Shown in pieces: positions 276 to 63,005 of a DNA stretch of 64,000 nt. How positions within the stretch are numbered: position 1 is the stretch's first letter; each line of letters opens with the position of its first letter. Location of the stretch: NCBI GenBank assembly GCA_002269645.1, contig NIVC01000391.1, positions 124,001 through 188,000 on the forward strand, given 5' to 3'. The DNA comes from Macrostomum lignano (lineage: Eukaryota). The notes beneath the pieces were generated by a model. It was not told the origin of the DNA and did not search any database. It saw only the letters and a program-made list of their open reading frames with translations. The position numbers were made by a program, and so were the translations under genes.

Positions 276-391
276 GTTTCCACAAATTATAAGTGGGAAT
301 TAATCAAACTCATATTACAATACAAGTATAAATCAAATATGGTTGAGCTACCGTCCCCAGTCAGTGAGCACAGAAATTGTCACAGGCTCAC

Positions 392-2565
392 CCGTCAGCC
401 CGATGGCCAGCTGCACGGAGTCCACATCCTGGAACTCAACATACGCGATGCCCTTGGACCGGCGAGTCCTGTTGTCCATGATCAATCGGACGTCGCGAAT
501 TTTTCCAACGCTAGAGAAAAAGTCGTCCAGATCGCGCGGCCGAATTCTCGGCGACATCTGCCAGACGAAGACTGTCCGAGCGTCCCGGTCCTCTGGGCTG
601 AGCTCTGGCGTCTGGCCCTTAGCGATGCGGTTCTTGTCCGACTGCCAGAACAGCACGCCGCCTTTGCCGCGCTGCAGCTCGTCAGCCGGCGAGCGGGACC
701 TCGAGCGGGACGAGCGGCGGCGGTGACGACGATCCCGATCCCGATCTCGGTCACGGTCCCGATCCCGGTCCCGATCGTCGTCTCTGCGTCGGTCCCGATC
801 GCGATCTCGTCCTCTCCGGTGGTCCCGGTCCCGATCCCGGTCCCTCTCCTTGTCCCGGTCCCGATCCCGGTCCCTCTCCTTGTCCCGGTCCCGATCCCGG
901 TCCCTCTCCTTGTCCCGGTCTCGATCCCGGTTTGATTTTCGTTCGCGACTTCGATCCCGATCTCGATCGCGGTCCCGATGACGATCCCGGTCCCGATCCC
1001 GATCTCGGTCGCGGGATTTCGATCCGCTGTCCTCCGGCTTCGGCGAGTCTTTGTTCACCGGCGGAATCGAGGCGGCCTCATTGGCGTCGTCGCTGGCCTT
1101 CCGTCTAGACGGGGAAGGGAAAGAAACAAAAGTGGGGAAACAGAGACTGAGAGAGGTCGCGATTGATGATAACTGGTGAATGGCTGGACAGTCGGGCGAG
1201 TGAAAACACCCGACAATACAATGCAAAAGCCTATGTCCGGGGTCTTCGCTCATTTGTTACCGTGGCAACTGATCCCTTCTTAATCAAAGCTGCGTCCGCA
1301 GCGGCAGAGGCAGAGAGACATACAGAGCGCCTCCTGCAAGGTTGCGAATTTGTCAAGTCAATAACTTTCAGCACAAGTTTTTTTGTCTTATTAGGCAAAC
1401 AATTTTAAGACGATGATGATGAAGCAAAGCAACCGCGAGGCTGGAGAGCGCGAGACCACACAGCGTTATCCAACTCACTGCCCAATCTCGAAGCCCTAGA
1501 AAGAGGATATTTACAAACTTGGCAACAGCGTAACCAACCAATTCAATTCTCTGGTCTGAATTCAATACCTTAGAAAAGGCAATTAGTTACTTGAGAATGC
1601 TGAGTAACTACTCGACTCATCGCCCCGGTAAGATCTGAAAAGCCAATTAAGCAATTAATCTGTACAGTACAGACGAGGAATAAAAACTGGGGTGCAAGAA
1701 TTGACGAGCTGCCGGAGTAGGAGCCAGCGTAAAATCATCTCGAGCCTTCACACCTGTCAATCAACTGGCGTCAGGCCTGCGGGGTTGTTGATTTTGATTG
1801 CAGTGGTTTGTTGGCATGGTAGCAGCTGCTCAGCTCCCTGCTCGGTGTCAGTTAATGGCCTAATTCTGCCGATCAAAATCAACCGACTGCCAGTTTTGAT
1901 CGGCAATAAAGAACGGCCTATTTTTAATTCTCAACTCGCTACTTGAGAGTAGGATGTCGAGAGGATTTGTCACTAGCCTTTTCATAAGCTTGCTTGTCAA
2001 AATCCTTGACTTTCTAACCTAAGCACGTCAGCTCCTCCCCTAGAACGTGACACATACCTTCCAGGACTGGAACTGCAGGTCCAGACAGACAGACAGGCGC
2101 CTGCTTCAGCAACCTAAGTTTTTTATTTAGGCGCATTTGGGAGCCCCCAATTTAGTTTCGAATATGAAGAAAGTTATTTGCTTTACAGTAAGAAACATGC
2201 AATTAGCTTAGAAGTATGCTTTAGAAATTCCTGCAATCTGACTAATAGAAATATTTAGATATTAAAAAAATAACAAATTCTACATTAAACAAGCTGACAT
2301 CAGGAATTAAACCGGGTCATTGGGAGTAATCACTGACTTACTTGGCTTCTGGTGACCGCTGATTATCTGGTGTGCTGTCCTTCTGTTTGGAACGCGCTGC
2401 AGGCTAAAAAGCACACAATGAAACAGAAATTATTTCTACTACTGAGTACACATTACCTAAAACATTATAAATAGCATAGCATAATTCATTTCAGCTTACC
2501 TTTGAGTGCTTTTTATAAGGAGCTTCTAGCAGCTCTTCTACATCGAAGCTTGAATCTTCTGACAT
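392..2565 (-). CDS. RBM39: RBM39/Caper-like splicing factor, 5' part: coding exons 2565-2500, 2403-2342, 1104-392; gene continues beyond the left edge
   Basis: Exon 1 encodes MSEDSSFDVEELLEAPYKKHSK (RBM39-type N-terminal LEAPYKK). GT/AG sites give consistent phases (66 nt, 62 nt, then +1 nt). Exon 3 has an RD/RS-rich tract followed by RRM1 (RDARTVFVWQMSPRIRPRDLDDFFSSVGKIRDVRLIMDNRTRRSKGIAYVEF). Confidence 0.93.
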
Positions 2566-2843
2566 ACTTTCTGAAATAAAAGTACAATAGGAAAATCAAA
2601 GATTTGCTACTTAGTAACCTCTGTTTTAATTGCAAAAAACTTTATGAATCTACCAGTATAATAGTTATAATAATAAATTTATATATACAAAATATAATTA
2701 AATACTTACAATTTTGTAATGTACAATTGTAAAACTTGGTTATACTTGTAACAGTTATACTAGGTCAAACTTTAAAAGAAAATAGTTAATAATATGATTT
2801 AGCCATAGGCCTACTTTTTAATTGCAATCTTTAATCCTATAGT

Positions 2844-3047
2844 TCTGGTGTATTCTTAACTCACACAACAACTTTATAAGTGAACAAATGTTAACTGTAT
2901 AGTCCAAAGGGCATGTCATGGGCAGAAATTTTCCTTGATTCAACATTTTTGAATCATTCAACACTTAACATTTGACATGCCCTTTGGACTGTACAGTTAA
3001 CATTTGTTCACTTATAAAGTTGTTGTGTGAGTTAAAAATATACCAGA
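2844..3047. repeat. Near-perfect inverted repeat (75-bp arms 2844-2918 and 2973-3047, 54-bp spacer)
   Basis: Arms are reverse complements with a few mismatches; abuts the hammerhead motif. Confidence 0.9.
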
Positions 3048-3084
3048 CCCTGAAGATGGTCATTGTTGGACCGAAACGCGTCGG
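3048..3084 (+). ncRNA. Minimal type I hammerhead ribozyme motif, Penelope-like retroelement remnant
   Basis: CC-CUGAAGA-U-GGUC(auuguug)GACC-GAAA-C(GC)GUC-GG: conserved core boxes, 4-bp stem II, palindromic ACGCGT minimal stem III, GUC cleavage triplet. Confidence 0.75.
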
Positions 3085-4309
3085 AAGAAAGAATTTATTA
3101 TAATCTATGTTGATTTTAACTTTCGTATTTCTCTGCCTGCTAAAGCGTGCTACCTTACGTCAAAAATAGTAATAGAATCCATTTTTGCAGACTATTTTTA
3201 CCTTACTTATACCAACATAAGTCTAAACATTCTTCCAATAGCATGTCATGTAAATAGGCCCTATTACAGCCAAGGTATGAACTATACTATAGGCATTTCA
3301 TTTTTAAAAAAAATTCTTTTGTTTTATCAATTAATTGCTAATGTGATGGACCTTGGATCTTGAATCTGACCCAATTTAAACTATATTTTAGTCTATATCT
3401 CTTAAAAAATAAAAGTCAGGGGTAAAAACCAAGGTAACATTAATGCCCTCCCTCTCCTACTTTAAAAGTAGGCGGCTATGACTTTCTGGGCCTCCTATAG
3501 TTAGGATCATGTTGTTTGTGCCAGAAGTTATCCAAAAATATTTTGTTTATATGCCAGGTACACCAGACACAAGTTAGTGCACAGGGTTATACTCATGGTA
3601 AGTAAACAATCTACTAGCCTTTCCCTTACTCTAGCATAGACATAAAATACAAAATGTTTTTTCACAAAGCTGTAATCCTTTATGTAATTAAATTATATAC
3701 TTAAAACAATGGTGGATCTAGAGGGGTAGGAGGCAGCTATCTCCCTATTTTGCTATTGTTGGACTTACATATAAGGGAAGCATTGCAATTTTGAACTTAA
3801 TTTAAGCCAATATATCCCCTAACCTAAAAAATAAAAAAATCCATCATTGACATACAACTTTAGAAGCACAATGTACATTTTTTTATCAAAATTTATAAAA
3901 TACAAAATTTTTTATAACTAAAATTTCTTAAGCTTGTACAAACTAGGGATTGACTGACCATGATTTTTTTCATGCATGATTGATTGGAACTAGACTGTGC
4001 ATAAAACTGTGTGTGACCATGAAATTTTTATAACATACATTTTAATTTAAACATAGAACTATTAATATTAATATTATCAAGTCTAGTAATTTTTATTGAT
4101 TAAAATTAAGTCTCTGTTTTATCATGTTTATTGTTTGACTGTATTTTATTATGTGGCTTTGTCATATCTGCACTGATTAATTGGAATTTTGGTTTGCTTT
4201 TCACATTGCTTCCTACTTTAGTCAATGTAATAAAGGAAATCAACAAAATTCATACACCACTTTTCTGATCCTATTGCAATGCATGACATAGGTGTGTGGA
4301 TGCCTACCC

Positions 4310-5307
4310 TGTAGAGATCTCCAAATACGATACAAAGTAAACTACTGTAAGTAGTAACATAAAAATGCGAAAAAATTGAATGTTATAAAAATTGCAAACT
4401 GTCATACTCTATTTTAAGACCGTGAATACAACGTACAACGAAGCATGAGACAAGTTGCAACGATGGTGAAATATGTCGCAACTATGGTGAAATATGATGA
4501 AATGAGATAAAATCTGATGAAATATGATGAAATATGAGTCGCGCTACTAAATATATACCAAAAATTCGACTATAAATATAAGCGTAAAATCCGAGCTGAA
4601 ACCTCAGACTCGGAGCAGCCTCAAAAGATCTTGTGGTTAGTTAGAGCAACTAATCGAGGCTATATCTCTGGGAGAGAAGCGTATCAATTGTGAAGTGTTG
4701 TTCAAGTCTTTGTTATTTTGATTAATTGAGAGCGATTTTATTGCCGGCCGGCCGTTGCTGATCCACTGACTTTACTGAGACTATTTGAGGCCTCCCATTT
4801 TCCTAAGGGATTGGATAGGATCTGCGGACCGATTCCGATACCCTTAGAGGATTACTGACTGTTGATTTGGATTATCCTAGGTTAACCGATAGGAGCACAC
4901 GACTCCGATTCCGTTAGATCTAGAAGAAGACGCCCCCTTTGGAGGACCTCGCGTTAGAATTTGAGTTTATTAGGGCGCACTGTTGATACTGATTTGGCAC
5001 TCGAGAAGCGTACTGAATCCCGCACTCAAGGAGATATTTTGACGTCGACTTCACTGTTCTGCTCTCACTCTCGGCCGACTTTGGACTTCGAAGACTTCAA
5101 GAAGATTCCTCCGGAGAAGAAGATTGGAAGAAGCGAACTCTACAAACGCGCGCAAAAAAAAAGAAACAAGGAACAAGCTCGGAGAACCTGCCCGACACAG
5201 AAGAAGAGCCCGCCACAGTAAGTGAACACGTTAATTTTGTTCCCAGGCTTAAGTGTCTGGAAGTGAGAGTTTTCGGGAGACTGATCACCTCCCGAATCAA
5301 CTCCTCA
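4310..5307 (+). repeat. 5' LTR of element 1
   Basis: TGTAGAG...CTCCTCA, 998 bp; about 10 substitutions versus the 3' LTR by eye (~99% identical). Confidence 0.97.
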
Positions 5308-5309
5308 AC

Positions 5310-5327
5310 TGGTGAGCCCGACGTGAT
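5310..5327 (+). promoter_or_regulatory. Primer-binding site, tRNA-Trp-like
   Basis: TGGTGAGCCCGACGTGAT, 2 nt after the LTR; 17/18 match to the tRNA-Trp PBS TGGTGACCCCGACGTGAT of avian sarcoma/leukosis viruses. Confidence 0.85.
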
Positions 5328-6133
5328 ACTGGGCTCTGAGAATTTTTTGTGTAAAAACACACGTGACCTTATTTGGGCAGTGTTAAAAATTTTCTTTGTG
5401 TAACCGACGTGGTTCGGTTATTGCACAAGTCTTTTGTGCTACTGAGCCCACGCAAAGTCTGGGCAGAGAGAAAATTTGTTATCGCACCTACGAATTTCAA
5501 CTTGATTATATAACTTTTACTGCACACTTGACGAAACTCGACTACTGTTAACGTTTCATTTTGATAAGCCTGACCCCAAAAATTTGCTTAGGCAACTGAT
5601 ACCAATTGTTCATCTCACGCTGCGAGTTTTAAATCTCCACGCTGTTTCACGCTGTTTCATTTTGCTCTAGCTCTCGCTGCAGATACCGCTTATCTAAGGA
5701 ATCACCTGTTGTTTACACACTTAGCGCTCTTGACTGGCCATCAAAAGCGTTATCGCTTGTGTCAAACTTTGCTTGACCCAACCTGCGCTGCAAAGCTACA
5801 CCTATCGCGTTAAAATTTCCGCCTGCAACTAATCCAGTTGTATAACACGTCTATTCATTACTGGAATTCAAACGAAAATTACGAAAAACCACTACCCCAA
5901 AACAAAAGAGAAATTTACGAACTGTCCTACCGTTGTCTTGACGCATATACTCTAAAACTCAAACGAAAAATACAAAAAACAGCTCCCAAAAGAAAACGAA
6001 ATTTACTAACTGAACTACTCTCATACACAACACACATACGTGCAAACAATAAACACTTGCCTACAACGCCACACTGGACGATCCATTGGAAATAGACCCA
6101 GATCTCAACCTTCTTCCATTTCCAATCGACAAC

Positions 6134-7126
6134 ATGGCACGAAGGAACCCTGCCGTCCATCGAGATATTAAGGAAACAGTCGGTTCTTACACTATGGACA
6201 AAGATTTTGCGACCTTCATTGACCACTTTGATTTAGTATCACGAGAATATGGATTACAAAATCCAGAAAAGGCGCTACTCCTTCCTCCATTACTACAAGG
6301 CACAGCCAGAGAAATTTATGGAAAATTGGATGCTGCCACACAGAGGGATTACCATGCCATGATTACCCAACTTCGAACACAGTTCGCACGATGCGGAACC
6401 AATCGATTGGTGTTGTTACACAAACTACACAATCGGAAAATGGCACCCACGGAATCATTCCTTACCTTCGTCGATGATATTCGAAAAATCATCAAAGCCT
6501 TGCATCAACAACAACCTCAACCAGCAGTAGCAGCTCAACCCCTTGGACCAGCAGAAGTGGCTGCTAGAGAAAGACAACGGCTTGCAGATCAAGAACAAAG
6601 TCTAATTCTTAATGTCATTAACAACGCTCAACCTGCCTTGCGAGATAGACTCTTGTGAGAAACAATTGAGACAGAAGAGCAGTTACTCCGCTGCGGAATG
6701 CAGTGGGAGGCAAGCGCACCTCTTCTTGCTAACCGCGCTAGTGACACCACACAATTAGCAGAACAATTAAGCAAGCTTATGCAACAACACCAAGCCGCAG
6801 CAATTGCAATGCGCCCGCAGCAAAGCAACCCTCGAAACGTTACTTGTCACAATTGCGGAAGAATGGGTCATTACTACAGAGATTGCCGACAAAACTTGCG
6901 CCAGAGTCAGCCACGAAATTATTCTGGTGGAAACAGACGAGACAATTGGTCTCGCTATCCTAATCAACAATATCCACCAAACAGAAATCGGATGAATAAC
7001 CGACCACCACCTTGGCGGGATAATCGTCCTAACAACACGATGGTACCTTACAATCCACGCCGAACAGCCCCACCAAGGCAGCCAACGCAGGTTTATAGAC
7101 AGTACACACAGGCCATTGAACCATAG
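6134..7126 (+). pseudogene. gag: Gag of element 1 (capsid-like region plus CCHC zinc knuckle), interrupted by an in-frame TGA at 6656-6658
   Basis: ORFs 6086-6658 and 6698-7126 share one frame; likely start MARRNP at 6134; CHNCGRMGHYYRDC knuckle; ends at TAG 7124-7126. Confidence 0.9.
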
Positions 7127-10100
7127 GTCAGTGAACAACAGGCTATCGAACCAAAATTTTCGGTGGAGGAACTGACGCCAGACTTCAGCATCAATGTACT
7201 TGATACCCTCCTTGAAGACACCGACTACCTGTTACCATCTCCAGTGGTACACGAATCTGAACCAAAATACGAGAATCTTGCTACAATTCTTGCTGCTGAA
7301 CGACGGAAACGGACAAACAAAGCTGTGAATACTCAACCGTTTCACCTCACACGCAACCAGTTCACTCAAACAGAAGATAACACCTACGTTATGATGAATG
7401 TCGGAGAACTGCGTCAAGAGACCTCTTCTATGCCGACTCAACCAGAATTTATGGATACTTTTCGAAGCCACCCTACGACGTGTCACCCACCAGCGTATCA
7501 GGAACCTCTAACACCAGTACCACACTCAAGAAAATGGTTCTTCCATCCACAAGACATTACTCCAGCTGAAGAACCAGAGAATGACTATGAAGAATTGGAT
7601 GAGACCACGATTACAAGTCACTCCAACAACAGAGAAGGACAAGAACAAAGTATGTCGATACCAAAGAAGAGCAAGAAGAGACACCCTCTAATAAAATGGC
7701 TATTTGCGATGATCCTTCTCGTCTTGCTACCACTGGTAACTTCAACTTCAGTACCAATGATCTGTCCTACAGATGCTACTATCCAGCCTGTCATCTACAA
7801 AATTCCTACGGAAGTCAAATGCAGTTACTTTAAGACGAATCAAACAAAGCCACTGCCGCTTACGATCGACATCTACAAAGCAAATACAAAGAAGCACCGA
7901 CAGATGGGAATTGTGTGCTTTAGAGACAAAGACGAACTCAAAAAGATTTGGATGGTACAATGGAACCGAATCAGATATTGGCAAACATCGATGAAGGTAT
8001 CACATGAAGAATGCCTCCAGTGGAACCAAACCCTGTTTTCCAAAGACGGTGAATTGAAGCTCCACGATACCTCAGCAAGCGGAGCACAACTATTCCGCAC
8101 TAACAACGTTGCCGATGGAAGATATGTACATTACCACGCAGCGCGATGGCCACTATACACCGTCTACAACAGCTATCTGATTCGAAACGTCTTGTTCTAC
8201 CACAATCCTTTCGACAACATGGAATCCTTGCAACTACCGCTTGACCAATGCCACTACAGCTCAGGATATTGCGCTACTCCTAACTACTACAAAGAGGAAG
8301 CTCAAAACTTACCGCTAGCTCCAAATTATTTTCATAACTATCGATACCAAATCGAGTACAGATCGGATTCTCGATACAAGGAACCGAGTCGAACTCGCAA
8401 ATACTTCATCGCATGGGAAGTTAAAACTGAAATAGATTGCAAACTACGGAAATACCACACTGTTCAAGGAAAATTGTTATCCAACACCTTCCTTGCAGAC
8501 TCCGGAGATCTAGCTCTTACTTTTCCGAAACAGCCAAGCTACACACAGTTGAAATGTAAAGACAACAATGAACAACTAATCCTATCTGACCAAGAAATAC
8601 CAATCATGCTAAAAGATATGGAGAAGAGCGTATTCTTGAAGGTAGTAAATGGAACCTATCCAAAAGAAGAAACATTGGAAAGACAGAAGCGAAACCTGGA
8701 TAAACCCTCGCTAGTATCGGCACGACTTCTGGCAGCAAAGCTGGCCACCATGGAACACAAACTACACAAGCAACTGAACTATCTGCACCGATCCATGGTC
8801 AAACTAACATGTCAAATGCACGAAACCAGTCTAAATTATGCAAGACAAAACTATTATGTCAATCCCACGACGACCTTCAGGAAGATCACAGGAATTGAAG
8901 ATGTCCTGGCAATTCCAGTCTACGGATATTTGCTAATCTACAAGTGTACTCCAATACAGCATTTCAACATTTTGCCGGCAAAAACGGCAACAACCTGTTA
9001 CGATAAACCCCGTATCGAAGCCTTCCACAATGGAAGACGAATTCAAGGATTTTTGGACACAGTACACAACATCATTGTCGGAACTGCCATTCCACGACCA
9101 TGTACCAACTCAGCTAACTATTTCAACGTGAATGGTCTACTACATCAAATTTCGTCGATGGGAGATATCAAGAACATCTCAAATTCACAGCTTATCGTTG
9201 ATGAGATGTACGAAATGTCCGATCTTCAGTTGAAATTCAATAAGCCCTTTGGAGATATTAAACTGGATGAAATCACCCCAGGATGGACAATTAACGATTT
9301 CCTACAAGTCTTTATCTCACAACGACAACTACTAACGAAGCTTTTTACGGAACGACAACGAGATGCAAAACGACCTACATCGCCGATGGGAATGACCATG
9401 CATAACGCCATCCAATCATTTTGGTCAAACAGCTTTTTGGATTTGATACAAGGAAGAGGAAGTCTGTACCAAGGATTCATATTTTCTAGCGCATGCATCG
9501 TGTGGGTCCATTTGGCGCTCATAATCCTCGTAACTGCAGTCAGATGTGCAGCAAGAGCCTGCCCTCAACAACTACATATTTTCCCAGTCGGACAAAAGGA
9601 AGACGAAACAAAGGAAGAACCAACGGAAAATACGCCACTACAAGAAATGACACCGCCAGTGCCGATGCCAACAGCTCCAACAACTCAAGACATTTATCCG
9701 AAAATTAATCATAAACTTGCTACGCCGTTGCCAACTCCACCACCGCACAACAGCGATCCAAAATGGCCTGAAAATTACGTCTGCACACTACAAGCCAACA
9801 TGGGACGTGCAGTAGCACAGGTCCTCATCAACAACTTGCCTAGTAAGGCACTTCTCGATTCCGGTAGCTCAATTACCGTCATCACGAAGAAGCTTTGCAA
9901 CAAACTACAACTAACCTTGCGTCCAGCCTCCATCGCCATTGCAGGAGCAGGAGGACATGCTCTCAACATCTTGGGACAAGCAGGAATCACACTCAAGATT
10001 GCGAACAAACAGCTACCAGTCCAGGCGTACATCATTGACCATCTGCCAAATCAAGACATGATTATTGGAATCGACACCTTCCGACAATTGAAGTTACCGC

Positions 10101-12271
10101 TTACGTTTGACTTCAACAAGCAAATGTTCAAACTCAACAATACGGAACACCCACTAGTGAGTCAAATTCAAGTCCAGCCAAAAGTACACCTGACACACGA
10201 CGTCTTCATTCGACCGGAAAGCACTTACTGGATTCGAGCCTCAATTGTTACCTCGGACGAAGTAGAAGAAGCTATGATTTTTGAGCCAAAACGAAGATTA
10301 CTCACAAACCGAGAAATCCTCATTCCCACAGCACTGGTACTAATCACAGCCGACAAAACGATTCCGGTACAAATTGTCAATCCTAACCAGCACCCAGTGA
10401 GAATCTATGCAGGAACTTGCATTGGACACCTTAGCACACAAGCTTCAGTGATGCTTATTCAATCAACGTCGACAACATTACCAAGGCAACAATTCCTAGA
10501 ACAAATCGATCTGTCACAAAGCCCGATTACTGAAGAACAAAAGAACCAAGTTAAAGATCTTGTATGGAAATACAACGACGTCTTCTGCCACCACGACTAC
10601 GACATTGGGCGAGCCAAAGACATCAAACAGAAGATCACCTTGCTGCCACACCAGGAACCAATTCAATGCAAACTGTACCCAATTGCGAAACACCTACAAC
10701 AACATTTTGACAAAATCATCGAGAAAATGCTCAAAGCCGGCATCATCAAGAGGACAGTTTCAGCCTATTCCTCGCCATGCTTGCTTGTCGAGAAGAAAGA
10801 AACAAACGAGAGAAGACTTGTCTGCGATTTTCGAGTCCTAAACAAGTATATTCCGACAGATCAACAAAGTCTACCCAAGATTTCGGAACTTCTGGCAAGA
10901 CTCAACACAGCGACACTCTTCACAGTCTTTGACCTACATCATGGATTTTGGCAAATCGAACTAGAAGAAGATTCTAAGCAATACACAGCCTTCAAAACGT
11001 ACAAAGGAGAACTCTTCGCTTACCAAAGAAGTCCTATGGGAATTTCAAACTCACCTGCCACAATGAGCCGACTAACAGCCTACATGCTTGCGGGATGTAC
11101 CAATCTACTCCACTATGTCGACGACATTCTTGCTTTCGGAGAAGATTTCGAACAACTACTCCAAACGATGGAACTCGCGTTATTCCTTCTCAGGCAACAA
11201 GGTCTCAAGCTACAACCCACCAAGTGCAAGTTTTGCCGAAGCTCGGTACGCTACTTGGGACACCACGTATCCGCAAAAGGAATTTCACCGGATCCCAGTA
11301 ATGTGGAGAAGATAAAGAAATTCCCGCGACCAACCTCTATAACAAAATTGCAGTCATTTCTGGGACTTGCACAGTACTTCCGAAAGTTTCTGCCAAACTT
11401 TGCCAAAACTGCCCAACCGTTGTACGAACTGCTAAAACACCCAAAGTGGAAAGAAGAAAACTGGAAGGACAAACAACAAGAAAGCTTCGAAAAGATCAAA
11501 CACCAACTGACGACCGACGCCTTACTGCAACATCCAAACTTCCAAAAACCTTTCATCATTGAAACCGACGCCTCAGGAAGTGGACTAGGCGCAGTCCTAC
11601 TACAAGAAACGGAAAGAAAGGTCGAAAAACCCATCGCCTACATCAGTCGAGCTCTACGACCAAACAAAACCAAGTGGTCCGCCACAGAACGAGAATTACT
11701 TGGAGTTCTGTTTGCACTACGACAGTTTCACTACTACATTTACGGTTCTCCATTACCGACAATCATCAGGACCGATCATGTACCGCTGACACACGTTGTC
11801 AAGACGAAAGGACAGACTAACAACCGCCTCATCCGAATGACACTCAAAATTCAGGATTACAACTTCCAACTAGTCTACAAACCGGGACCACTCAACAAAG
11901 CCGCAGATGCCCTTTCCAGAGCCTACGAAGTCAATGCCATTCATCCAATTCCGAAAATGCAAGAATTGATTACGGCACAGCAAGACGACACCTTCTACAA
12001 GGCCGCACAAAGCAACAACGACACCACGCAAGCCAAATTAACAAAACAAGAAAGAAAATTCCTTAAAAAACAGAGCGACAATCTAATCTTCAAAGAAGCA
12101 ATCCTTTATTGGATCTGTGACAACATTCCGCGACTCTATCTGCCATATTTGTTTCGAGCCGCCATCTTGCAAGAATTGCACGACATGCCAAGAAACATGC
12201 CACGACAGGACACCTTTCTGCCAAGAAGACAATCGACCGAGTGGCAAAATTCTACTTTTGGCCGACAATGA
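7127..12271 (+). CDS. pol: Env-Pol polyprotein: leader, internal signal sequence, class III-like glycoprotein, TM, tail, aspartic protease, RT, RNase H; in frame with gag across one TAG
   Basis: Codons 7127-7162 are open and in the gag frame. LLDSGS protease (~9851), RLVCDFRVLN, DLHHGFWQI, YVDD (11114-11125), ETDASGSGLGAVL and TDH RNase H motifs. Confidence 0.92.
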   Translation, partial: VSEQQAIEPKFSVEELTPDFSINVLDTLLEDTDYLLPSPVVHESEPKYENLATILAAERRKRTNKAVNTQPFHLTRNQFTQTEDNTYVMMNVGELRQETSSMPTQPEFMDTFRSHPTTCHPPAYQEPLTPVPHSRKWFFHPQDITPAEEPENDYEELDETTITSHSNNREGQEQSMSIPKKSKKRHPLIKWLFAMILLVLLPLVTSTSVPMICPTDATIQPVIYKIPTEVKCSYFKTNQTKPLPLTIDIYKANTKKHRQMGIVCFRDKDELKKIWMVQWNRIRYWQTSMKVSHEECLQWNQTLFSKDGELKLHDTSASGAQLFRTNNVADGRYVHYHAARWPLYTVYNSYLIRNVLFYHNPFDNMESLQLPLDQCHYSSGYCATPNYYKEEAQNLPLAPNYFHNYRYQIEYRSDSRYKEPSRTRKYFIAWEVKTEIDCKLRKYHTVQGKLLSNTFLADSGDLALTFPKQPSYTQLKCKDNNEQLILSDQEIPIMLKDMEKSVFLKVVNGTYPKEETLERQKRNLDKPSLVSARLLAAKLATMEHKLHKQLNYLHRSMVKLTCQMHETSLNYARQNYYVNPTTTFRKITGIEDVLAIPVYGYLLIYKCTPIQHFNILPAKTATTCYDKPRIEAFHNGRRIQGFLDTVHNIIVGTAIPRPCTNSANYFNVNGLLHQISSMGDIKNISNSQLIVDEMYEMSDLQLKFNKPFGDIKLDEITPGWTINDFLQVFISQRQLLTKLFTERQRDAKRPTSPMGMTMHNAIQSFWSNSFLDLIQGRGSLYQGFIFSSACIVWVHLALIILVTAVRCAARACPQQLHIFPVGQKEDETKEEPTENTPLQEMTPPVPMPTAPTTQDIYPKINHKLATPLPTPPPHNSDPKWPENYVCTLQANMGRAVAQVLINNLPSKALLDSGSSITVITKKLCNKLQLTLRPASIAIAGAGGHALNILGQAGITLKIANKQLPVQAYIIDHLPNQDMIIGIDTFRQLKLPLTFDFNKQMFKLNNTEHPLVSQIQVQPKVHLTHDVFIRPESTYWIRASIVTSDEVEEAMIFEPKRRLLTNREILIPTALVLITADKTIPVQIVNPNQHPVRIYAGTCIGHLSTQASVMLIQSTSTTLPRQQFLEQIDLSQSPITEEQKNQVKDLVWKYNDVFCHHDYDIGRAKDIKQKITLLPHQEPIQCKLYPIAKHLQQHFDKIIEKMLKAGIIKRTVSAYSSPCLLVEKKETNERRLVCDFRVLNKYIPTDQQSLPKISELLARLNTATLFTVFDLHHGFWQIELEEDSKQYTAFKTYKGELFAYQRSPMGISNSPATMSRLTAYMLAGCTNLLHYVDDILAFGEDFEQLLQTMELALFLLRQQGLKLQPTKCKFCRSSVRYLGHHVSAKGISPDPSNVEKIKKFPRPTSITKLQSFLGLAQYFRKFLPNFAKTAQPLYELLKHPKWKEENWKDKQQESFEKIKHQLTTDALLQHPNFQKPFIIETDASGSGLGAVLLQETERKVEKPIAYISRALRPNKTKWSATERELLGVLFALRQFHYYIYGSPLPTIIRTDHVPLTHVVKTKGQTNNRLIRMTLKIQDYNFQLVYKPGPLNKAADALSRAYEVNAIHPIPKMQELITAQQDDTFYKAAQSNNDTTQAKLTKQERKFLKKQSDNLIFKEAILYWICDNIPRLYLPYLFRAAILQELHDMPRNMPRQDTFLPRRQSTEWQNSTFGRQ
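7688..9541 (+). CDS. Envelope-like fusion glycoprotein domain (herpes gB / chuvirus G / rhabdovirus G-like class III fold, inferred)
   Basis: Hydrophobic signal LIKWLFAMILLVLLPLVTS, Cys-rich ectodomain with N-x-T/S sequons, furin-type RQKR (8681-8692), gB-like NPTTTFRKITGIEDVLAIPVYGYLLIYKC and CYDKPRI..GFL..PC..YF blocks, TM segment at ~9473-9541. Confidence 0.75.
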
Positions 12272-13341
12272 CCAAAGACATCAGCAAATATTGCCACGAA
12301 TGCCATTCATGCGCAGCCGCCAAAACAGGACGACGCCAAAAGCCACAATTACAAACGGTACCTAAAACAACGACATGGGACACAGTCTCCCTCGACATTA
12401 CGGGACCGCTACCTGCCGCACGACAACACTCAATCAACTATACCTACATTCTCACCGCTCTCGACGTCTTCTCGAAATTTGCTGTAGCAATTCCACTGCC
12501 GAACATTACCGCCGAAACAGTAGCTATGACATTCTACAACGAGATTGTCTGCAAGTATGGAACACCTAAGACTCTAACCACCGACAACGGAACACAGTTC
12601 ACTTCACAAATATTTCAACAAGCTGCAAAACTGCTTAACATACAACAAATCTTTACGTCAACCTACAACCCCAAGGCAAACCTAGTAGAAAGATTTCACC
12701 GCAACCTACACGAAATGTTGACTCATTATGTCTACAAGCAACCAGAAGACTGGATCATCTACCTGCAAGCAGTAACGATGGCATACAACAGCGCGAGACA
12801 TCGGTCAACAGACAATACGCCATTCTTCTTAATGTTCGCTCGAGATTTTCAACCGCCCAGCCTACTCGCCAAACAATTACTGCCATCTCAGTATGTGGAA
12901 ACACCGTCGACACTCCACACCTTTGCAACACAACTACACCTGGCTTGGCAAATTGCCAAACATAATCTTGACAACCAGACGGCAACATCGACAACAGCCA
13001 ACAACGCATCTACGCTACAAGTCGGAGATATGGTCTACTTGCACTATCCAGCCCAACAGACGCATAAACACGCTCAAAAGTACAAAGGACCATTTTGAGT
13101 ATCAGCACTGACTTCGGCAACCACAGCCAAACTGGCCAATGTCCAAGATCCACATCAGCCGCAGTTCTATGTGCACATTCAACGACTGAAACGCATCAAC
13201 ACAGACTCTACGTTTCTGCCAAATTTAAACAATGAAAATCACACAAAAACACCGTCTAAACATATTGCTACTTCTCACGCCGAAACACAAACTACGGACA
13301 ATTCCCCAACTAACCACTCCTATAACCTCAGACCCCGCTAG
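12200..13341 (+). pseudogene. Integrase of element 1 (HHCC, DDE, GPF module), frameshifted from pol near 12190 and with a TGA at 13096-13098
   Basis: TGHLSAKKTIDRVAKFYFWP..CHEC, SLDITGP, TDNG, NLVERFHR; after KGPF* the frame continues VSALT..VHIQRLK..HSYNLRPR-TAG (13341). Confidence 0.9.
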
Positions 13342-13447: not shown

Positions 13448-14116
13448 ATGGCTAACACATTCGAATGCCCTGTCTGTCTAGACGACACTCTCACCAAGAA
13501 ACCTCCGTGTATATGTGTAAATAACCACCGTGTATGCGGATCCTGCTTAAGTGATGCTCACCATATCCAGCCCTGGCAAGCCTGCCCCATGTGTCGTGGC
13601 GCCCTACGACAATGTATGGTTTGTACATCATGGCGCACCTACAAGTTCTGTACAAATGAACATTTTCTATGCATGCAGTGTACCAAGAAATTAGCCACTC
13701 GAGAAGTGCTTATGTGTCCTGAATGCGATGCTTTTCCTCTAGTAAAAATGCGCGATCAACTTTTACGTATACAACCGGTACAAACGGTTCAGTTATCTGC
13801 ATCCATAGTGCATCAACTCGCTCCAATAGACGCTATTCGCCGACTAGATGAGTGGCCCCTTCCTAGAAACTCTCGCTCCGCATATGTGCACCTCGTTATG
13901 TACGCACATCATAATAGACACCAATTAATACTCTTTCCGTTACAATGTATTCAGCAACGTCTTTTACGGTACCTATCAATATGCGAGCAACCAAGTCTCC
14001 CATTTCACTGTGCTATAATACCACTACTTATCAAAAAGCATGCCGATTTAACCATGTTAGTAACGTACAATGAGTTAACAGCCTGGCAAGGCAATACGTA
14101 CGACGAAGTAGATTAG
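13448..14116 (+). CDS. Accessory ORF A, 222 aa: two tandem RING-like zinc fingers plus a C-terminal EWPLP domain (putative E3 ligase)
   Basis: FECPVC..C.NNH.VCGSC..CPMCR (SINA/Siah-like spacing), then CMVC..CTNEHFLCMQC..CPEC. Confidence 0.8.
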   Translation: MANTFECPVCLDDTLTKKPPCICVNNHRVCGSCLSDAHHIQPWQACPMCRGALRQCMVCTSWRTYKFCTNEHFLCMQCTKKLATREVLMCPECDAFPLVKMRDQLLRIQPVQTVQLSASIVHQLAPIDAIRRLDEWPLPRNSRSAYVHLVMYAHHNRHQLILFPLQCIQQRLLRYLSICEQPSLPFHCAIIPLLIKKHADLTMLVTYNELTAWQGNTYDEVD

Positions 14117-14149: not shown

Positions 14150-14752
14150 ATGGAATCATGTCCCGTGTGCTACGAGGAAGAAATCACACCATACGTCTAC
14201 TGCCAGAACGCACATAGGCTGTGTTTCCTCTGCCGCACTACAGAACTGATTGACAAGTGCCCCCTGTGCCGAGCACCACCTACCAACTGCCAAGTGTGCA
14301 ACGCCGTCCCACAAAGGCAACTCTGTGAAAACAAGCACTGGGTATGCCACGACTACGTCATGTCGATACAGCGATACAACATTACAAGGTGTGTCACCTG
14401 CGCTCAACCAATCTTAATCGACACCCCGGGCAACAATGAATTCAAAATCACGCTAACGACGGACACCTTAAACAACTTAAGGACAACTGATCTTGCCCAG
14501 ATCATCAGAGAGTGGCCTATACCCTACAACCGGCAACCGCAGCTAACCTTCTTGTTCCAACGGGCCCGACATTACGCCATGACGACAAACGCCCTTCCTG
14601 CGGAGGAAATCTACCTCAACCTACTTCACGAGACCAACACTCAGGAGTACACAGCAGTTCAACATCTCATTTGGCCCATAGCATTACTAACGGCAAGTAT
14701 CAATAACTACTTTATCACAACGCTCAACAACCACTTTGCTTCTTGCTACTAA
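14150..14752 (+). CDS. Accessory ORF B, 200 aa: double RING-like paralogue
   Basis: CPVC..CQNAHRLCFLC..CPLCR; the second finger has Tyr at one Cys position (CHDY); IREWPIP motif. Confidence 0.8.
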   Translation: MESCPVCYEEEITPYVYCQNAHRLCFLCRTTELIDKCPLCRAPPTNCQVCNAVPQRQLCENKHWVCHDYVMSIQRYNITRCVTCAQPILIDTPGNNEFKITLTTDTLNNLRTTDLAQIIREWPIPYNRQPQLTFLFQRARHYAMTTNALPAEEIYLNLLHETNTQEYTAVQHLIWPIALLTASINNYFITTLNNHFASCY

Positions 14753-14953: not shown

Positions 14954-15562
14954 ATGTCTGCAGTAGAATGCCCTGTCTGCCTGGAGGAGGCCACCTACCA
15001 GCAGGTGATGTGCCAATACGGGCACAAAACCTGCTTCAGGTGCGTCGACTCCAGCATGATAGCCACTTGTCCACTATGTCGCGACCCACTCATAGCGTGT
15101 AGCCTTTGTGGGGACAATCCCCAGGTGAAGCTGTGCCAGTCTCGTCACTGGTGCTGCTTCACCTGCCTGCAAAGGCTGGGTACACGTGGTATCACCTATT
15201 GCCCTAATTGCCTTGACACTCTCCTTCCCCCGACAGTAGAATTAAACCAAAATACCGAAATCTGGCCAGAGGTGGGCCTGTATAACCTGGAACAATTCAC
15301 CGAATGAGAAATCGCCAGCAACATCCGAGAGTGGCCGCTGCCGGTCAAATTGCACGACGCACGCCAGCGACTGCTAGCTTTCGGCCGGCAACAAGCGGTT
15401 ACGGAACCGCCTAGATCGGCGGAGGACATCTACAACCAACTAACTAATACGATGAACAGCTCCCACTACATCCCACTACAACATCTGTTCTGGCCAGTCG
15501 CCATCTTGGTGACACGAACGCAACGATACATCCGGCGCACTTTGACGGACATTTTTCAGTAA
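14954..15562 (+). pseudogene. Accessory ORF C: double RING-like paralogue with an in-frame TGA at 15305-15307
   Basis: ECPVC..CQYGHKTCFRC..CPLCR, CSLC..CQSRHWCCFTC..CPNC; ORFs 14945-15307 and 15350-15562 share one frame; IREWPLP follows the stop. Confidence 0.8.
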
Positions 15563-15822: not shown

Positions 15823-16820
15823 TGTAGAGATCTCCAAATACGATACAAAGTAAACTACTGTAAGTAGTAACATAAAAATGCGAAAAACTTGAATGTTATA
15901 AAAATTGCAAACTGTCATACTCTATTTTAAGACCGTGAATACAACGTACAACGAAGCATGAGACAAGTTGCAACGATGGTGAAATATGTCGCAACTATGG
16001 TGAAATATGATGAAATAAGATAAAATCTGATGAAATATGATGAAATATGAGTCGCGCTACTAAATATATACCAAAAATTCGACTATAAATATAAGCGTAA
16101 AATCCGAGCTGAAACCTCAGACTCGGAGCAGCCTCAAAAGATCTTGTGGTTAGTTAGAGCAACTAATCGAGGCTATATCTCTGGGAGAGAAGCGTATCAA
16201 TTGTGAAGTGTTGTTCAAGTCTTCGTTATTTTGATTAATTGAGAGCGATTTTATTGCCGGCTGGCCGTTGCTGATCCACTGACTTTACTGAGACTATTTG
16301 AGGCCTCCCATTTTCCTAAGGGATTGGATAGGATCTGCGGACCGATTCCGATACCCTTAGAGGATTACTGACTGTTGATTTGGATTATCCTAGGTTAACC
16401 GATAGGAGCACACGACTCCGATTCTGTTAGATCTAGAAGAAGACGCCCCCTTTGGAGGACCTCGCGTTAGAATTTGAGTTTATTAGGGCGCACTGTTGAT
16501 ACTGATTTGGCACTCGAGAAGCGTACTGAATCCCGCACTCAAGGAGATATTTCGACGTCGACTTCACTGTTCTGCTCTCACTCTCGGCCGACTTTGGACT
16601 TCGAAGACTTCAAGAAGATTCCTCCGGAGAAGAAGATTGGAAGAAGCGAACTCTACAAACGCGCGCAACAAAGAAGAAACAAGGAACAAGCTCGGAGAAC
16701 CTGCCCGACACAGAAGAAGAGCCCGCCACAGTAAGTGAACACGTTAATTTTGTTCCTAGGCTTAAGTGTCTGGAAGTGGGAGTTTTCGGGAGACTGATCA
16801 CCTCCCGAATCAACTCCTCA
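15823..16820 (+). repeat. 3' LTR of element 1
   Basis: Direct repeat of 4310-5307 followed by TSD ACCC. Confidence 0.97.
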
Positions 16821-18139
16821 ACCCTAACTGCACCACAGTGACATGATGGATGGGGGGACTGCTTCACACTTTTCAGCCTCCCGTTGCCTCCCCCTACTTT
16901 GTAACACCATGCCATACCTCCTGCTGCTCCCTATTGGAATAAGTTGACAAAATGCAGATGACCATTCATCACATTTTCAGATTCTCCTGGTGTCATGTTG
17001 CGCAACAGTGGTATCAAGTGGTGTATCGAGTTGCGCAATAGTGCCATCTAGCATTGTGTTGCGTTGCGGCTGCACAACACTGTGGCAACCTGGTGTCATC
17101 ATGTGTCACATTGTGGCCTGAATCTGCAGCCAAAACCTCGCAAACTGCATTTCATTGTAATCTGTTCACAGTTGTTTCTCAGTATTTAAATGTTTCAAAC
17201 ATGTTTGATAATAACTAGTTCTTGAAATTTGTTTTTATTTATTTTAACAGTAAAGTAAACAATACTTCAAATATAATTTTTAGAAATGTTACTTGTTAGT
17301 TACAATGCAGGCGCTGTTTTTCTAACTGTTGTACCTTTGTTGTTTACTTTTTATTGTTTTTAAATTTCATTTCTTTTTCTGAGAAATTGAAAGGAATACT
17401 CTGATCCCTCACCCCATGGTCTCAGTCTCGAGAGTGAATGGCAGAATGGGAATTGTAAATTTAAGTGAATGCTTGATGCCCTGATTTTGTCTCCCCCAGT
17501 CATTTGGTCAACAGACATTGGTGTCACGTCGCCGCGTCACCCCCCTACCAGTCAACAAAATTTAGTGTCATATCACACTTTTGAGGGTACAATTTTGGCA
17601 CCTGTGTGGGAGGAGGAGTCAGCAGGTTTTTGAAACTTTTTCCAATAGGGCTGCTGCTTTGCCCTGCCATGCTATGCCAGGCTGATAAGCGCTAGATGCT
17701 ATCCACCAAAATGTCTATGCATTGCAATTGGACTTTTTGTAGGTTCCACCATAGCCATAGTTATGGCTATGGGATCTTACAGCAAATATGGTAAAATAGG
17801 TGCCTATGGCAGCTACAGATATGCCTATGGTAGCTAGCTGCTCTTATGGCTACGACTACAGAAATATAATAGTTGCTGTCACATTCTATGGATTCCTATA
17901 GCCGTAGTTATTAATTTTTTAAAATTTAAAAAAGTATTAGAAATAGGTAGAGTAAAACAAAGATACTTTGGTAAACTGTATTATCAACTTAGAAAATAAA
18001 TAAAATATGAGGCCAACTCTGTTGGCAGAAAAAAGGGGATAGAACTCCCATTGCCAGAATTTCATTCCCTGAAATCCATCAGCTGAATCCAATGACACAA
18101 ATCCCATCGTCCAAATCCTCTCCAAAATTCTATTAACCT

Positions 18140-22775: not shown

Positions 22776-22923
22776 TCTCAGTGTATAGGAATCACCACTG
22801 TTACAACTTGGTGGCAGCGTAAAGGATTAGAGAAACGGCCAAAAATTAGACAGATCAGAGAAACGGCGAAGAACTCCGGCAGTTGAAGATCATCAGTAAG
22901 AAATTTTAAGATTAAGAAGAGAG

Positions 22924-23940
22924 ATGGCTAATGCCAATGATGCAATCGCTATGCTAGCTGAAGAGCTACGGAACAGGTTAGAATTAGGACCACAAAGGCA
23001 CGTGAAAATTCAGAAATTTACACCTGGCCAAGACATCAGGATTTGGCTGACTGCGTTTGACCAGCGCTGTGAAACTGAAGGTATTGAAGAAGATCACCGG
23101 AAGCAAGAGCTTCTCGCGAACCTCGACCTGGCTACTGCATTCGCAGCAGTTCAGCGTCTGAACCTCCCAGATGATCTGGAGTACGAAGAATTTAAGGAGA
23201 GACTTATAGAGCGCTTTGGTAGAATCGGAAGTTCAGCAGAGTTTAGAGAAGAATTTAGAAGCCGAATGCAAGGCAGGAATGAGTTAGTAGAATCGTACAC
23301 TGATTGTCTAATTGAGCTAGCTTCGCGAGCCTTCCCGAACATGACTATGGAACAGCGGGAAGAGGAGATCGTGGAACAGTTCATCAAGGGTGTGAGAATT
23401 CCACCTGAAACCCGCGAGAAACTGATCTTCGCTCAGCCAGCTAATCTGCAAGAAGCTAGAAGGATGTTGAGGAGAATGGAAGCAGCCTGGAACATGTCAC
23501 GCAGGAACTCAGGTATGAGAGTGGCTAGGAATGAGGAAGAGCAAGAACAGAAGAGGGCTGAACAGGAAAGGCTGGAAGAGATCATTAAGAAGCAGAAGTT
23601 TGAGATCGAACAGCAGAGGAAGGCTTTGCAGGAGCTAAGAGAAGAGAAGATGCAGAATAATCAGCAGCAGTATCCGCAGAATTATTCGTACGCTCTAGCA
23701 GCCAGGCAGTATCCGCAGAGATACCAGCCTCAACAGCTGCGGCCTGTTCCGCCACAGTATGGAGCGCAGGCGCGACAGCAGATGTTTGCCGGGCAGCAGC
23801 ACCCGAACCAGGGTCAGCCGAGACAACAGTCGCAGACTTGCTATAACTGCGGGAAGATCGGCCACATTGCAAAGCAGTGCAGGAGTGCCAAGCAGAACGT
23901 TCCGCAGATGCCGAATCGTCAGAATAATCAGGGAAACTGA
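22924..23940 (+). CDS. gag: Gag of element 2, 338 aa
   Basis: Capsid-like region (FRSRMQGRNELVESY), coiled coil, Q-rich tract, CYNCGKIGHIAKQC knuckle. Confidence 0.92.
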   Translation: MANANDAIAMLAEELRNRLELGPQRHVKIQKFTPGQDIRIWLTAFDQRCETEGIEEDHRKQELLANLDLATAFAAVQRLNLPDDLEYEEFKERLIERFGRIGSSAEFREEFRSRMQGRNELVESYTDCLIELASRAFPNMTMEQREEEIVEQFIKGVRIPPETREKLIFAQPANLQEARRMLRRMEAAWNMSRRNSGMRVARNEEEQEQKRAEQERLEEIIKKQKFEIEQQRKALQELREEKMQNNQQQYPQNYSYALAARQYPQRYQPQQLRPVPPQYGAQARQQMFAGQQHPNQGQPRQQSQTCYNCGKIGHIAKQCRSAKQNVPQMPNRQNNQGN

Positions 23941-26900
23941 GAAGCGAGGGCCGAATTACGAGGCCACGTCCCTCTAGCGAAATCCAGAGCAAAATTCAGG
24001 CCTCTGAATTTGTAAATAATGCGTACAAAGTTAACAAACAGTACATGTATAGGCCACGCGAAGATTATAATAAGTTCAGAAAACCAAACAAAAAACATGC
24101 GAATGCACATACAGTACCGAATGTAAATACTACGCGTGCACCTATTTGCTCACCTAAGAAAAGTACTCCAAGCCCGAGAGAGGAGTACGTTAAGATGAAT
24201 GAAAGTGCAGACGAAGAAGTTATTACTAGCGCAGAGAAGAAAGGAAGAGAAGCAGTTATCGATGGAAAGATTCGTAGGCAGAACATTCGTTTCTTACTAG
24301 ACACAGGAGCCGGTCACAACTTCTTAAGTAAGAGTACTTGGAGAAGAGTATGTAGAGAACAGGAGATCAGGCCATCTGATCGGAGAGTAACCGCTTTCGA
24401 TGGAGCAAGAGTACAGATCGAAGGAGAAGTATCAGTGACAGTAATGTTCGGAGAGATAGAGATCGAGACCGACTTCCTGCTGTGCAATCACGAATGCGAC
24501 GATATTCTAGGAATGGAGTTCTTCATGAACTTTTGCGAAAGTATGAGCTTCGATAAGGGAATGATGGTTCTAAAAACAGGAGAATGTATTCCAATGCAGT
24601 TTACTAAGTTGCCGGTACGAGTTTGCCGAGTATACTGCTATGACAAGGTAGTCGTGCCAGCTAATAGTGCTTTAAGAATACCAGTCAAATTAGCCAAAAG
24701 AGCAGAAATGAACTACGGTACGCCGATGATGATCGAGACGACTAAAGGACATATTCCAGTAAACGAAGACTCACTGGATATGGTTCCAACCCTACTAACG
24801 ATGAAAGACGGAACCGGAGTAGTAGAAGTAATTAACAGACAGAGCAATGACGTAACAATTAGAAAATCAGCAATGGTAGGCATTGCCAAGCCATTGAAAG
24901 CCAAAGAGCTAACTTACTTTGTTGCTAAGAAAAACACTGGACAAGTCAACTCCGCGAAATGCACCGAAAATGCTGAGGATGCCGATGAATGGATTCAGGA
25001 GGTTAACATCTCGGATGAGCTAACACCAGAGCAGAAAGACAAAGTAATCGAGTTACTCAAAGAGAATAGGAAAGCATTTTCGCAGACGAATCAAGACATG
25101 GGTCTCACGCATCTTGTGACCCACGAGATATCGTTAAAGGACTCGACGCCAGTCAGAATACCTACTCGCAGAATACCACCGCATCTGCAGAAACAAGTAG
25201 ACGAACAGTTAGACGATATGCTCGCTAAGAATTTGATAAGACCGTGCTATAGCACCTATTCGACGCCATTAGTAATTGTGCCTAAGAAAGATGGAACGAT
25301 TAGGATTGTCAGCGATTTCAGAGTCTTGAACTCTCGAGTTAACTATTATCCATATCCGTTACCGAATATTCAAGAGACCTTCTCTCATCTAACGGGAAGC
25401 CAATACTTTAGCAGCTTAGACTTAAATTCAGGCTATTGGCAGGTACCGATTAAGGAAGAGGACAAATTTATGACGGCATTTTCGACTTTGACTAGGGGAC
25501 AGTTCGAGTATCAGGTCATGGCTCAGGGACTATCTAATGCACCTGGAACATTCCAGAGATTAATGAACCTAGTGCTGATGGGAATTCAGCACAAGTTCGC
25601 CATGTCGTACATTGACGACATAGTAACCTACTCAGAGAGATTCGAAGATCACTTGAGTCATTTACGAGAAGTATTCAAGAGACTAGTGACAGCCGGATTA
25701 AAGTTAAGGCCGAAGAAATGTAATCTATTCCAGAAAGAGCTTAAATATCTAGGACACATAGTTGGCAGAGAGGGAATTAAGACAGATCCAGCTAAGATAG
25801 AAGCAATCCAGTCATGGCCGACGCCTAAGGACGTTAAAGAATTAAGAAGCTTCCTAGGTCTCTGTAATTATTACTGTAGGTTCGTGAAGAATTACGCGGA
25901 AGCAGCGCACCCGCTCTTCCAGCTAACTAAGAAGGGAATTCAGAATTTTAGGGAGAAATGGACTAAGAGTCATGATGAGGCATTTGCGCTGTTAAAGCAG
26001 AAAATGACATCAACCGAAGTCTTAGCATACCCAGAGTTCACAGACAACGAAGAAGTTCGAATGGTGCTTGACACTGACGCGAGTGATGACAGAATTGGGG
26101 CCTGCTTAGGTCAGATACAATCCGATGGAGTCGAAAGACCCATCGCGTACTTTAGCAGGGCCATGAAGGAATCGGAAAAAAGGTATCCAATCACGAGAAA
26201 AGAATTGCTAGCATTAGTGGACGGAATGAAACACTTCCGATTCTATCTCATCGGAAAGAGATTCCTGGCAAGAACAGATCATCGCGCTATTCTATGGCTA
26301 CTTCGCCAGACTGAAGCGCAGGGAATCCTCGGTAGATGGATAGAGAGGTTAAGCGAATTTCAGTATGACATTGAACACCGCAGTGGTGCTAAACACACCA
26401 ATGCAGACGGACTATCCAGACGACCCGCAGAACGATTAGAGAAAAATCAGGAGGCTAAGGCAGAAAAGTGCACTGACGCTGAGACAGGTCCAGTACCTCC
26501 TACCGTTACGGTAAATCGAAGTCAGACCGAAGTCTCAAATTGCAAGCACCAGAGCTGCCAGACTGATCTGATTAGAGAAGAAGTAGAAGATGATGAAGAG
26601 TTCGAAGATGCAAGAGAGTATTTCGAAGATGAAGAAGATGAGTACGAAGACGCCAGCGATTATTTCGCTGATGATGAAGAGGTATATGACGATGCAAAAG
26701 AGAGTTTTGAGGGAACCTCTTGTCGGAAACTCCTTACCGACTATCTCTTTGTCCCGCTTAAGAAGGAGCAGCTGACATCAGCTCAGCGTGACAACCCTTC
26801 TACAAGGACGCTGATAGCTTGGAAAGAGCAGAAAATCCAAGAGCCGAAATTGCTCGAAGATGCAACTAGAGAGCTGAAGCAGATGGCAAAGTTCTATCAG

Positions 26901-48620: not shown

Positions 48621-48734
48621 CCGCGTGCTCACTGCCAGCTACCAGTGCTGCCTGACTGTCCAATTGCGAACTCAAGTTCTTCCCAAGTCACCACTGGGCC
48701 TGGGCAAACTGGCTGTCCCCCCTGCACTCCCAAC

Positions 48735-62909: not shown

Positions 62910-63005
62910 AGAGTACATCAGAGTATATCGGAGTACATCAGAGTACATTGGAGTACATCAGAGTACATTGGAGTACATCAGAGTACATCAGAGTACATCA
63001 GAGTA
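62910..63005. repeat. 10-bp tandem repeat GAGTACATCA/GAGTACATTG
   Basis: Direct observation. Confidence 0.85.

Follow-up and report, generated by a model that had tools for sequence, protein, structure and literature searches.

Within a 64,000-nucleotide window of the genome of the flatworm Macrostomum lignano (contig NIVC01000391.1, positions 124,001 to 188,000), we analyzed a 12.5-kb Ty3/gypsy provirus that carries an envelope gene (env) between gag and pol. This copy is a recent insertion, now dead, from a Ty3/gypsy family that carries env; the working form of the family is, in our judgement, probably a single open reading frame (ORF) of about 2,500 codons that runs from Gag to integrase (IN), is threaded through the membrane of the endoplasmic reticulum (ER), and is followed by genes for RING-type proteins. 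A first-pass annotation of the window, made from sequence alone, had placed env between gag and pol with Pol in frame behind the Env transmembrane (TM) anchor, an arrangement that was borne out here and in most sibling copies. The polyprotein region of the window copy is composed of the following features.

6134..7123, + strand: Gag, a capsid followed by a CCHC zinc knuckle at 6845 (zf-CCHC, E 4e-5), broken by TGA 6656-6658
7124..7126, + strand: TAG, by sibling alignment and hairpin folding a nonsense lesion private to the window copy
7127..7663, + strand: hydrophilic, fast-evolving leader or spacer from Gag to Env, with an INVL motif at its start
7664..7744, + strand: internal signal-peptide-like segment (hydropathy), with a basic n-region, a hydrophobic core and small residues before PMIC
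7745..9472, + strand: class III, herpesvirus glycoprotein B (gB)-like ectodomain with 12 cysteines and N-glycosylation sequons
8681-8692, + strand: furin-like RQKR inside the ectodomain
9473..9541, + strand: Env TM helix (hydropathy)
9542..9805, + strand: Pro-rich tail from the TM helix to the protease, containing PTAP and, immediately ahead of the protease, a conserved PKWPxNYVCTL block
9806..10102, + strand: aspartic protease (PR; Pfam), LLDSGS at 9851-9868
10577..11860, + strand: reverse transcriptase (RT) and RNase H (RH; Pfam), YVDD at 11114-11125
12172..13341, + strand: IN (Pfam), comprising zinc-binding, core and C-terminal tail regions, put into another frame by an indel near 12.2 kb and interrupted by TGA 13096-13098

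As annotated, the ATG at 6134, the stretch from 7127 to 12271 and the codons in between all lie in the same frame; this stretch measures 1714 codons from stop to stop, or 1702 when counted from GTG 7163. The components that had been read from it were all confirmed, namely KKSKKR (7664-7681), a hydrophobic segment (7682-7744), a Cys-rich ectodomain, a TM helix, a Pro-rich tail and PR-RT-RH, without a stop. A Pfam domain scan placed the zinc knuckle in gag, PR, RT and RH in the long ORF, IN in another frame, and RING-like matches in three ORFs after pol. The long ORF leaves the IN frame at the small indel near 12.2 kb.

The single-ORF state is found in the siblings. Searching the genome at the DNA level yielded 45 matches at about 40 loci, 20 of which were fetched (L001-L020). 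Three of these carry an ORF without any stop that, counted from its first methionine, measures 2480 aa in L005, 2479 aa in L006 and 2495 aa in L016, and in each the domain order is Gag-leader-signal-Env-TM-PR-RT-RH-IN within the one ORF. When the TM helix, tail and PR were used as the query, 146 genome matches were recovered, 53 of which (by eye, and with the window included) span the junction in one frame; 52 of these 53 are uninterrupted there, and 11 belong to open frames 2461-2538 codons in length. Among the fetched siblings that keep the end of env together with PR, 9 of 12 are in frame. Separately, L007 contains an insertion of about 3.5 kb (3750-7280) that carries its own ORFs and breaks env.

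The annotation had also proposed that the TAG at 7124-7126, which does lie at that position, is a programmed readthrough site. Its claim that this codon alone parts gag from the ORF behind it was wrong, as gag contains a second in-frame stop, TGA 6656-6658. Gammaretrovirus-like readthrough that sets the level of Gag against that of Env-Pol would suit the placement of the TAG, which is in frame and directly behind the nucleocapsid region, where a gag stop is expected. However, none of the 20 siblings is interrupted by a stop at the aligned position (sense in 14, not aligned in 6), and the only three that align well across it, L001, L002 and L003 (88-89% identical there), cross it in open frames. 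Other stops in the same copy are likewise private: the site aligned to TGA 6656 is sense in 18 siblings and not aligned in 2, and that aligned to TGA 13096 is sense in 13 and not aligned in 7, with no stop at either. The window copy also carries the frame-shifting indel near 12.2 kb and a TGA at 15305-15307 in the third RING ORF. Three nonsense changes in the polyprotein region compare with 1.7 expected under neutral decay at 0.5% divergence per long terminal repeat (LTR; P for three or more = 0.25). The structure that had been suggested to promote readthrough, GTCAGT paired with ACTGAC, does form in the predicted fold, yet only at chance level: with a folding tool that does not model pseudoknots, the hairpin reached -14.2 kcal/mol, compared with -13.7 +/- 2.7 for shuffled sequences (z -0.19; 82 of 200 shuffles equally good), and neither half was found in any of the three closest siblings. 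Because the siblings lack a stop at the TAG site, readthrough is refuted for the family; the proposal that it sets Env/Pol stoichiometry did not hold either, the unbroken siblings having one ORF. We therefore give programmed readthrough at 7124 almost no chance of being correct, and count TAG 7124, on the alignments, among the several lesions private to this copy. A QAIEP peptide is repeated on either side of the TAG (window 7109-7156), forming a short tandem duplication at the Gag-leader boundary.

Structure searches agree with the annotation that env encodes a membrane glycoprotein, and assign it the gB/class III fold. The ectodomain matched Pfam family PF24664 with an E-value of 8.7e-5, falling short of the curated cut-off, while a profile built from 56 env homologues matched herpesvirus gB with an E-value of 1e-14. 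An AlphaFold model of the ectodomain (predicted local distance difference test score, pLDDT, 79.9; predicted template modelling score, pTM, 0.52) matched gB of herpes simplex virus 1 (HSV-1) in Foldseek with an E-value of 1.5e-21 and a template modelling score of about 0.5. The ratio of nonsynonymous to synonymous substitution rates (dN/dS) in the ectodomain is 0.07-0.09 in all three pairs compared, and env is under purifying selection; the leader and tail diverge fast, with leader identity to L005 at 24-41% for other subfamilies. All four copies compared retain the furin-like site. In the three unbroken polyproteins two strong hydrophobic segments flank env, and the only other one is weak and lies inside IN; a signal-peptide-like segment also stands ahead of env in each of the 11 distant fused homologues inspected. 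We take the INVL at the start of the leader to be a possible protease site, and motifs resembling gypsy protease sites occur both there and just ahead of PR.

That env is a one-off insertion in the window copy was considered and rejected: the siblings rule it out, as do the genome-wide TM-tail-PR matches and a set of 78 env homologues. Of these 78, many of which are fragments, 33 contain env alone, 21 are Gag-Env, 10 are Env-Pol, one is PR-Env-PR, and 13 join Gag, Env and Pol in one chain, P0001 among these 13 resembling a chimeric gene model; RT or IN ahead of env was found in none of the 78. Judged from these sequences, the Gag-Env-Pol fusion is old and widespread. The M. lignano protein P0002 (UniRef) is 95% identical to L016 and 67% identical to the window ORF, and P0005, of 2852 aa and from the same species, belongs to another family, distant but alike in layout. 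P0003 (2208 aa) carries Gag-signal-Env-TM-PR-RT-RH-IN in one chain. Trees of RT and of env, drawn from unlabelled homologues with midpoint roots and with long branches in the env tree, show the same main split, in which the host's four rows lie apart from the other eight. Among the homologues, P0022 has protease domains on either side of a gB-type env, and P0010 has two protease domains behind env.

From established signal and stop-transfer rules, the most likely topology of the chain places Gag and the leader in the cytosol, the ectodomain in the lumen, and the tail and Pol in the cytosol. Translation would begin in the cytosol, where the internal signal would direct the ribosome to the ER; the ectodomain would enter the ER lumen, to be glycosylated and cut by signal peptidase and furin, and the TM helix would then halt transfer, such that Pol emerges on the cytosolic side. 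The signal segment would keep Gag, and the Env tail Pol, anchored at the inner face of a single membrane, where capsid, spike and enzymes would be made 1:1:1, as in a flavivirus or alphavirus polyprotein. No recoding step would be involved, leaving the primary ratio at 1:1:1, and the element's own protease would cut on either side of the env cassette to release Gag and Pol, probably as particles bud or afterwards. The topology proposed in the first-pass annotation is thus kept, and its recoding step is dropped.

Behind pol, the window copy contains three accessory ORFs.

13448..14116, + strand: accessory ORF 1, Cys-rich and RING-like, 222 aa (Pfam)
14150..14752, + strand: accessory ORF 2, RING-like, 200 aa (Pfam), with a pyrimidine tract and CAG ending directly at the ATG
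14954..15562, + strand: accessory ORF 3, RING (zf-C3HC4, E 4e-4; Sina_RING, E 3e-6), broken by TGA 15305-15307

RING-type accessory ORFs occupy 8600-9920 in L005, and an assembled contig of run X11 joins L005 position 563 to 9322 with GT..AG ends, using the donor GAA/GTAAGT and a pyrimidine-CAG acceptor two bases ahead of the RING ORF 2 ATG. The RING genes are probably spliced from an LTR donor, on RNAs that would start in the LTR; retroviruses express env by this route. In the window copy, a GTAAGT near the 3' end of the LTR presumably serves as the working donor. RING ORF 1 has relatives in numerous parts of the genome, with 150 scored matches. No homologue of it at E <= 0.001 was present among 58 candidates of similar length, and its Atlas matches all scored under 0.9, with recognition below the reliable range. 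No paper on RING genes after pol in LTR elements was found by title or start of abstract, though subscription papers and figures may hold them. The cassette is a candidate counter-defence module.

Several observations weigh against a single threaded chain as the working form. The assembly may hold redundant contigs, in which case the copy counts are not independent insertions, and the signal and TM assignments come from hydropathy only. Topology, cleavage and particle formation are things that we infer. Large internal deletions occur in 8 of the 20 fetched copies: L001-L003 lack the TM helix, tail and protease, and L008-L012, five nearly identical copies, lack half of env and pol. That mobilized copies so often lack these parts would fit an Env that works without infectious particles, the cassette serving an intracellular retrotransposon purely to anchor it in the membrane or to scaffold its assembly. 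However, a 575-aa ectodomain in which the cysteines and the furin-like site are all conserved goes beyond the needs of an anchor, and since the deleted copies have also lost parts of pol, they are best read as non-autonomous passengers; we hold the scaffold interpretation to be quite improbable. L008-L012 keep an open frame of 1031 codons that encodes Gag, leader and half of Env, along with the RING ORFs, and L009 ends at a contig end.

Other points on the same side concern the RNA and the ratio of products. Equimolar Gag and Pol are unusual in retroelements and would call for a balancing step. In about 15 genomic copies the frame is broken immediately behind the TM helix, and the three of them that were fetched, L017, L018 and L020, share a 1-nt loss there, by which the frame would end as Gag-Env with a short tail. 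A pyrimidine-AG stretch at the start of the TM-coding region in L005, L006 and L016, which was not found in the window copy, makes a splice into this region possible. The read evidence consists of assembled contigs from four runs presumed to be RNA, and the RING splice is seen in one contig of one run, with no such joint listed for the other three.

These points bear on an alternative in which the ORF is single in the DNA and most of Gag, Pol or both come from other RNAs or from recoding, the threaded chain being a minor product; it covers splicing around env, early polyadenylation, an internal start, and Gag-Env helper copies that stop after the TM helix. Retroelements usually need an excess of Gag, about 15 copies are split after the TM helix, Gag-keeping internally deleted copies (L001-L003, L008-L012) are common, and one or more splice donors in the element can be used. 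Nevertheless, none of the 13 joints listed in the four runs skips env alone, and contigs cross both leader-signal-env (X11 record 12) and TM-tail-PR (X1 record 3 and X5 record 27), although this evidence, from contigs, is weak. No consensus splice donor was present in gag-leader in any of the four copies scanned, nor an acceptor near PR. A programmed -1 frameshift after the TM helix in L017, L018 and L020 was considered and rejected: their overlaps contain no slippery heptamer (0/3), and L019, which is 99.3-99.7% identical to the split copies, is in frame, the split copies carrying scattered 1-nt losses of the kind that sequencing error or decay would leave. Because of the missing slippery site and the near-identical in-frame L019, sequencing or assembly error, or decay, is a likelier source of the post-TM break than a helper lineage, though a Gag-Env-only helper lineage may lie behind it. 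Overall, we consider it unlikely that most Gag or Pol is made in these other ways, and retain the single threaded chain as the probable working form.

Motifs resembling late domains (PTAP/PSAP, PPxY) were found in 8 of 24 leader and tail segments, compared with 1.4 expected from shuffling. Seven of these eight lie in four related sequences of the host (the window copy, L005, L016 and P0005, in which 7 of 8 segments are positive), while distant homologues have 1 in 16, and the motifs are a lead only. Joining these pieces leads to a more tentative proposal, possible but rather doubtful, that these elements are flavivirus-like retroviruses: an ER-threaded chain would supply capsid, class III spike and RT at 1:1:1, late-domain-like motifs would sit on the cytosolic flanks of Env and not in Gag, splicing from the LTR, no longer needed for env, would express three counter-defence genes for RING proteins resembling ubiquitin ligases, and Gag-Env-only copies would perhaps supply extra structural protein. 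The open question that the family serves is how an enveloped retroelement assembles from one membrane-spanning chain without ratio control by readthrough or frameshifting. A young age, many copies and closeness to named proteins from a laboratory flatworm, M. lignano, open the family's native RNAs and proteins to direct study.

The frame of the provirus in the window is as follows.

4306..4309, no strand: left copy of the 4-bp target-site duplication (second copy 16821-16824)
4310..5307, + strand: 5' LTR, 998 bp (LTR-LTR alignment)
5218..5223, + strand: GTAAGT resembling a splice donor, close to the LTR 3' end and about as far from the primer site as the L005 donor
5310..5327, + strand: primer-binding site, complementary to the 3' end of a tRNA-Trp of the same genome
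15808..15819, + strand: polypurine tract ahead of the 3' LTR
15823..16820, + strand: 3' LTR (LTR-LTR alignment)

The two 998-bp LTRs differ by 10 mismatches in 1000 aligned bases (99% identical). Of nine combinations of LTR end and length tried, only one matched a target duplication, and it yields LTR ends of TG...CA. The element has the features of Metaviridae, with TG...CA LTRs, target duplication, primer site and polypurine tract, a Gag with a zinc knuckle, and the Pol order PR-RT-RH-IN. The primer site has switched within the family: the window copy uses tRNA-Trp, and 15 siblings (L004-L008, L010-L012 and L014-L020) have another primer site.

Elsewhere in the window, a second, different Ty3/gypsy element lies at 22900-29774 (+), where a gag of 346 codons overlaps a 1519-codon pol in another frame and a 339-codon ORF with no Pfam match follows pol. 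At 351-1256 (-), an exon-like ORF that encodes an RRM domain (E 1.6e-12) and a repeat rich in RD/RS probably belongs to a host splicing-type RNA-binding protein. Dense minisatellite arrays with units of 9-40 nt fill 44000-63000, and inverted repeats of 236-290 nt are present at 59555-62716.

The first-pass annotation took this architecture to be possibly undescribed, but its headline claim is not new, as the gene order itself has been published. GAG-ENV-POL elements with an HSV/gB-type env are reported as "ancient errantiviruses" from Nematoda, Bryozoa and Platyhelminthes in the accessible text of Chary & Hayashi (eLife 2026, PMC13524379), which cites Sacco 2022 for nematode elements with env before pol and was the sole match in our literature search for gag-env-pol retrotransposons. 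With these errantiviruses the present family shares a Ty3/gypsy Pol, a gB-type env and the order gag-env-pol. As in that class, env is flanked by gag and pol, and its gB-type ectodomain by a signal segment and a TM helix; intact multicopy ORFs occur in the siblings, the window copy being broken. Among the elements listed in PMC13524379 is Platyhelminthes_Rhabditophora_Mlig_errantivirus_2, whose 12-nt primer site is that of 15 of the 20 fetched siblings and differs from the tRNA-Trp site of the window subfamily; the likeness observed is one of primer site. By eye, the window-family env resembles the nematode c2 and bryozoan C2b domain I-II sequences of the same paper, and P0003 resembles the tylenchid-type env sequences of its supplement. 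The accessible text states "ORFs arranged as GAG-ENV-POL" and leaves a single polyprotein, its topology, splicing and accessory genes undiscussed: figures aside, the preprint text has no match to polyprotein, frameshift or splic, and the eLife text none to fused, single ORF, RING or accessory. Env is not mentioned in the first sixth of PMC12801592. The topology model and the three RING genes after pol were not found in the literature searched; figures, supplements and subscription papers outside that search may already state the single-ORF form or the RING genes.

Nematode endogenous retroviruses (Sacco, Lau, Godinez-Vidal & Kaloshian 2022, J Gen Virol, doi 10.1099/jgv.0.001739) also have env before pol, according to the accessible text of PMC13524379. 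They differ from the present family in host, which here is a flatworm, as it is for the closest named proteins, P0002 and P0005. In the RT and env trees, which include no labelled member of the nematode clade, the host's four rows group apart. The nematode elements are reportedly built around a continuous gag-env-pro-pol ORF with extra ORFs; such a continuous ORF is present in L005, L006 and L016.

Atlas virus and related nematode belpaoviruses share with this family one stop-free polyprotein of Gag, Pol and Env, per the accessible text of Merchant et al. 2022 (PMC9094657). According to the same source, Atlas virus differs in belonging to Belpaoviridae, in its order Gag-Pol-Env and in its class II, phlebovirus-like env at the C-terminus, so that Pol does not lie behind a TM anchor. 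The likeness to the gammaretrovirus gag-UAG-pol arrangement is confined to the position of the stop after the nucleocapsid in a single copy; unlike there, the window stop is not conserved and has no supported downstream structure. In flavivirus, hepacivirus and alphavirus polyproteins, a cytosolic capsid is followed by an internal signal, a luminal glycoprotein, a stop-transfer helix and cytosolic products. These are unrelated positive-strand RNA viruses, and the comparison is one of working principle only: flavivirus-type enzymes are not packaged, whereas the RT and IN of this element must be.

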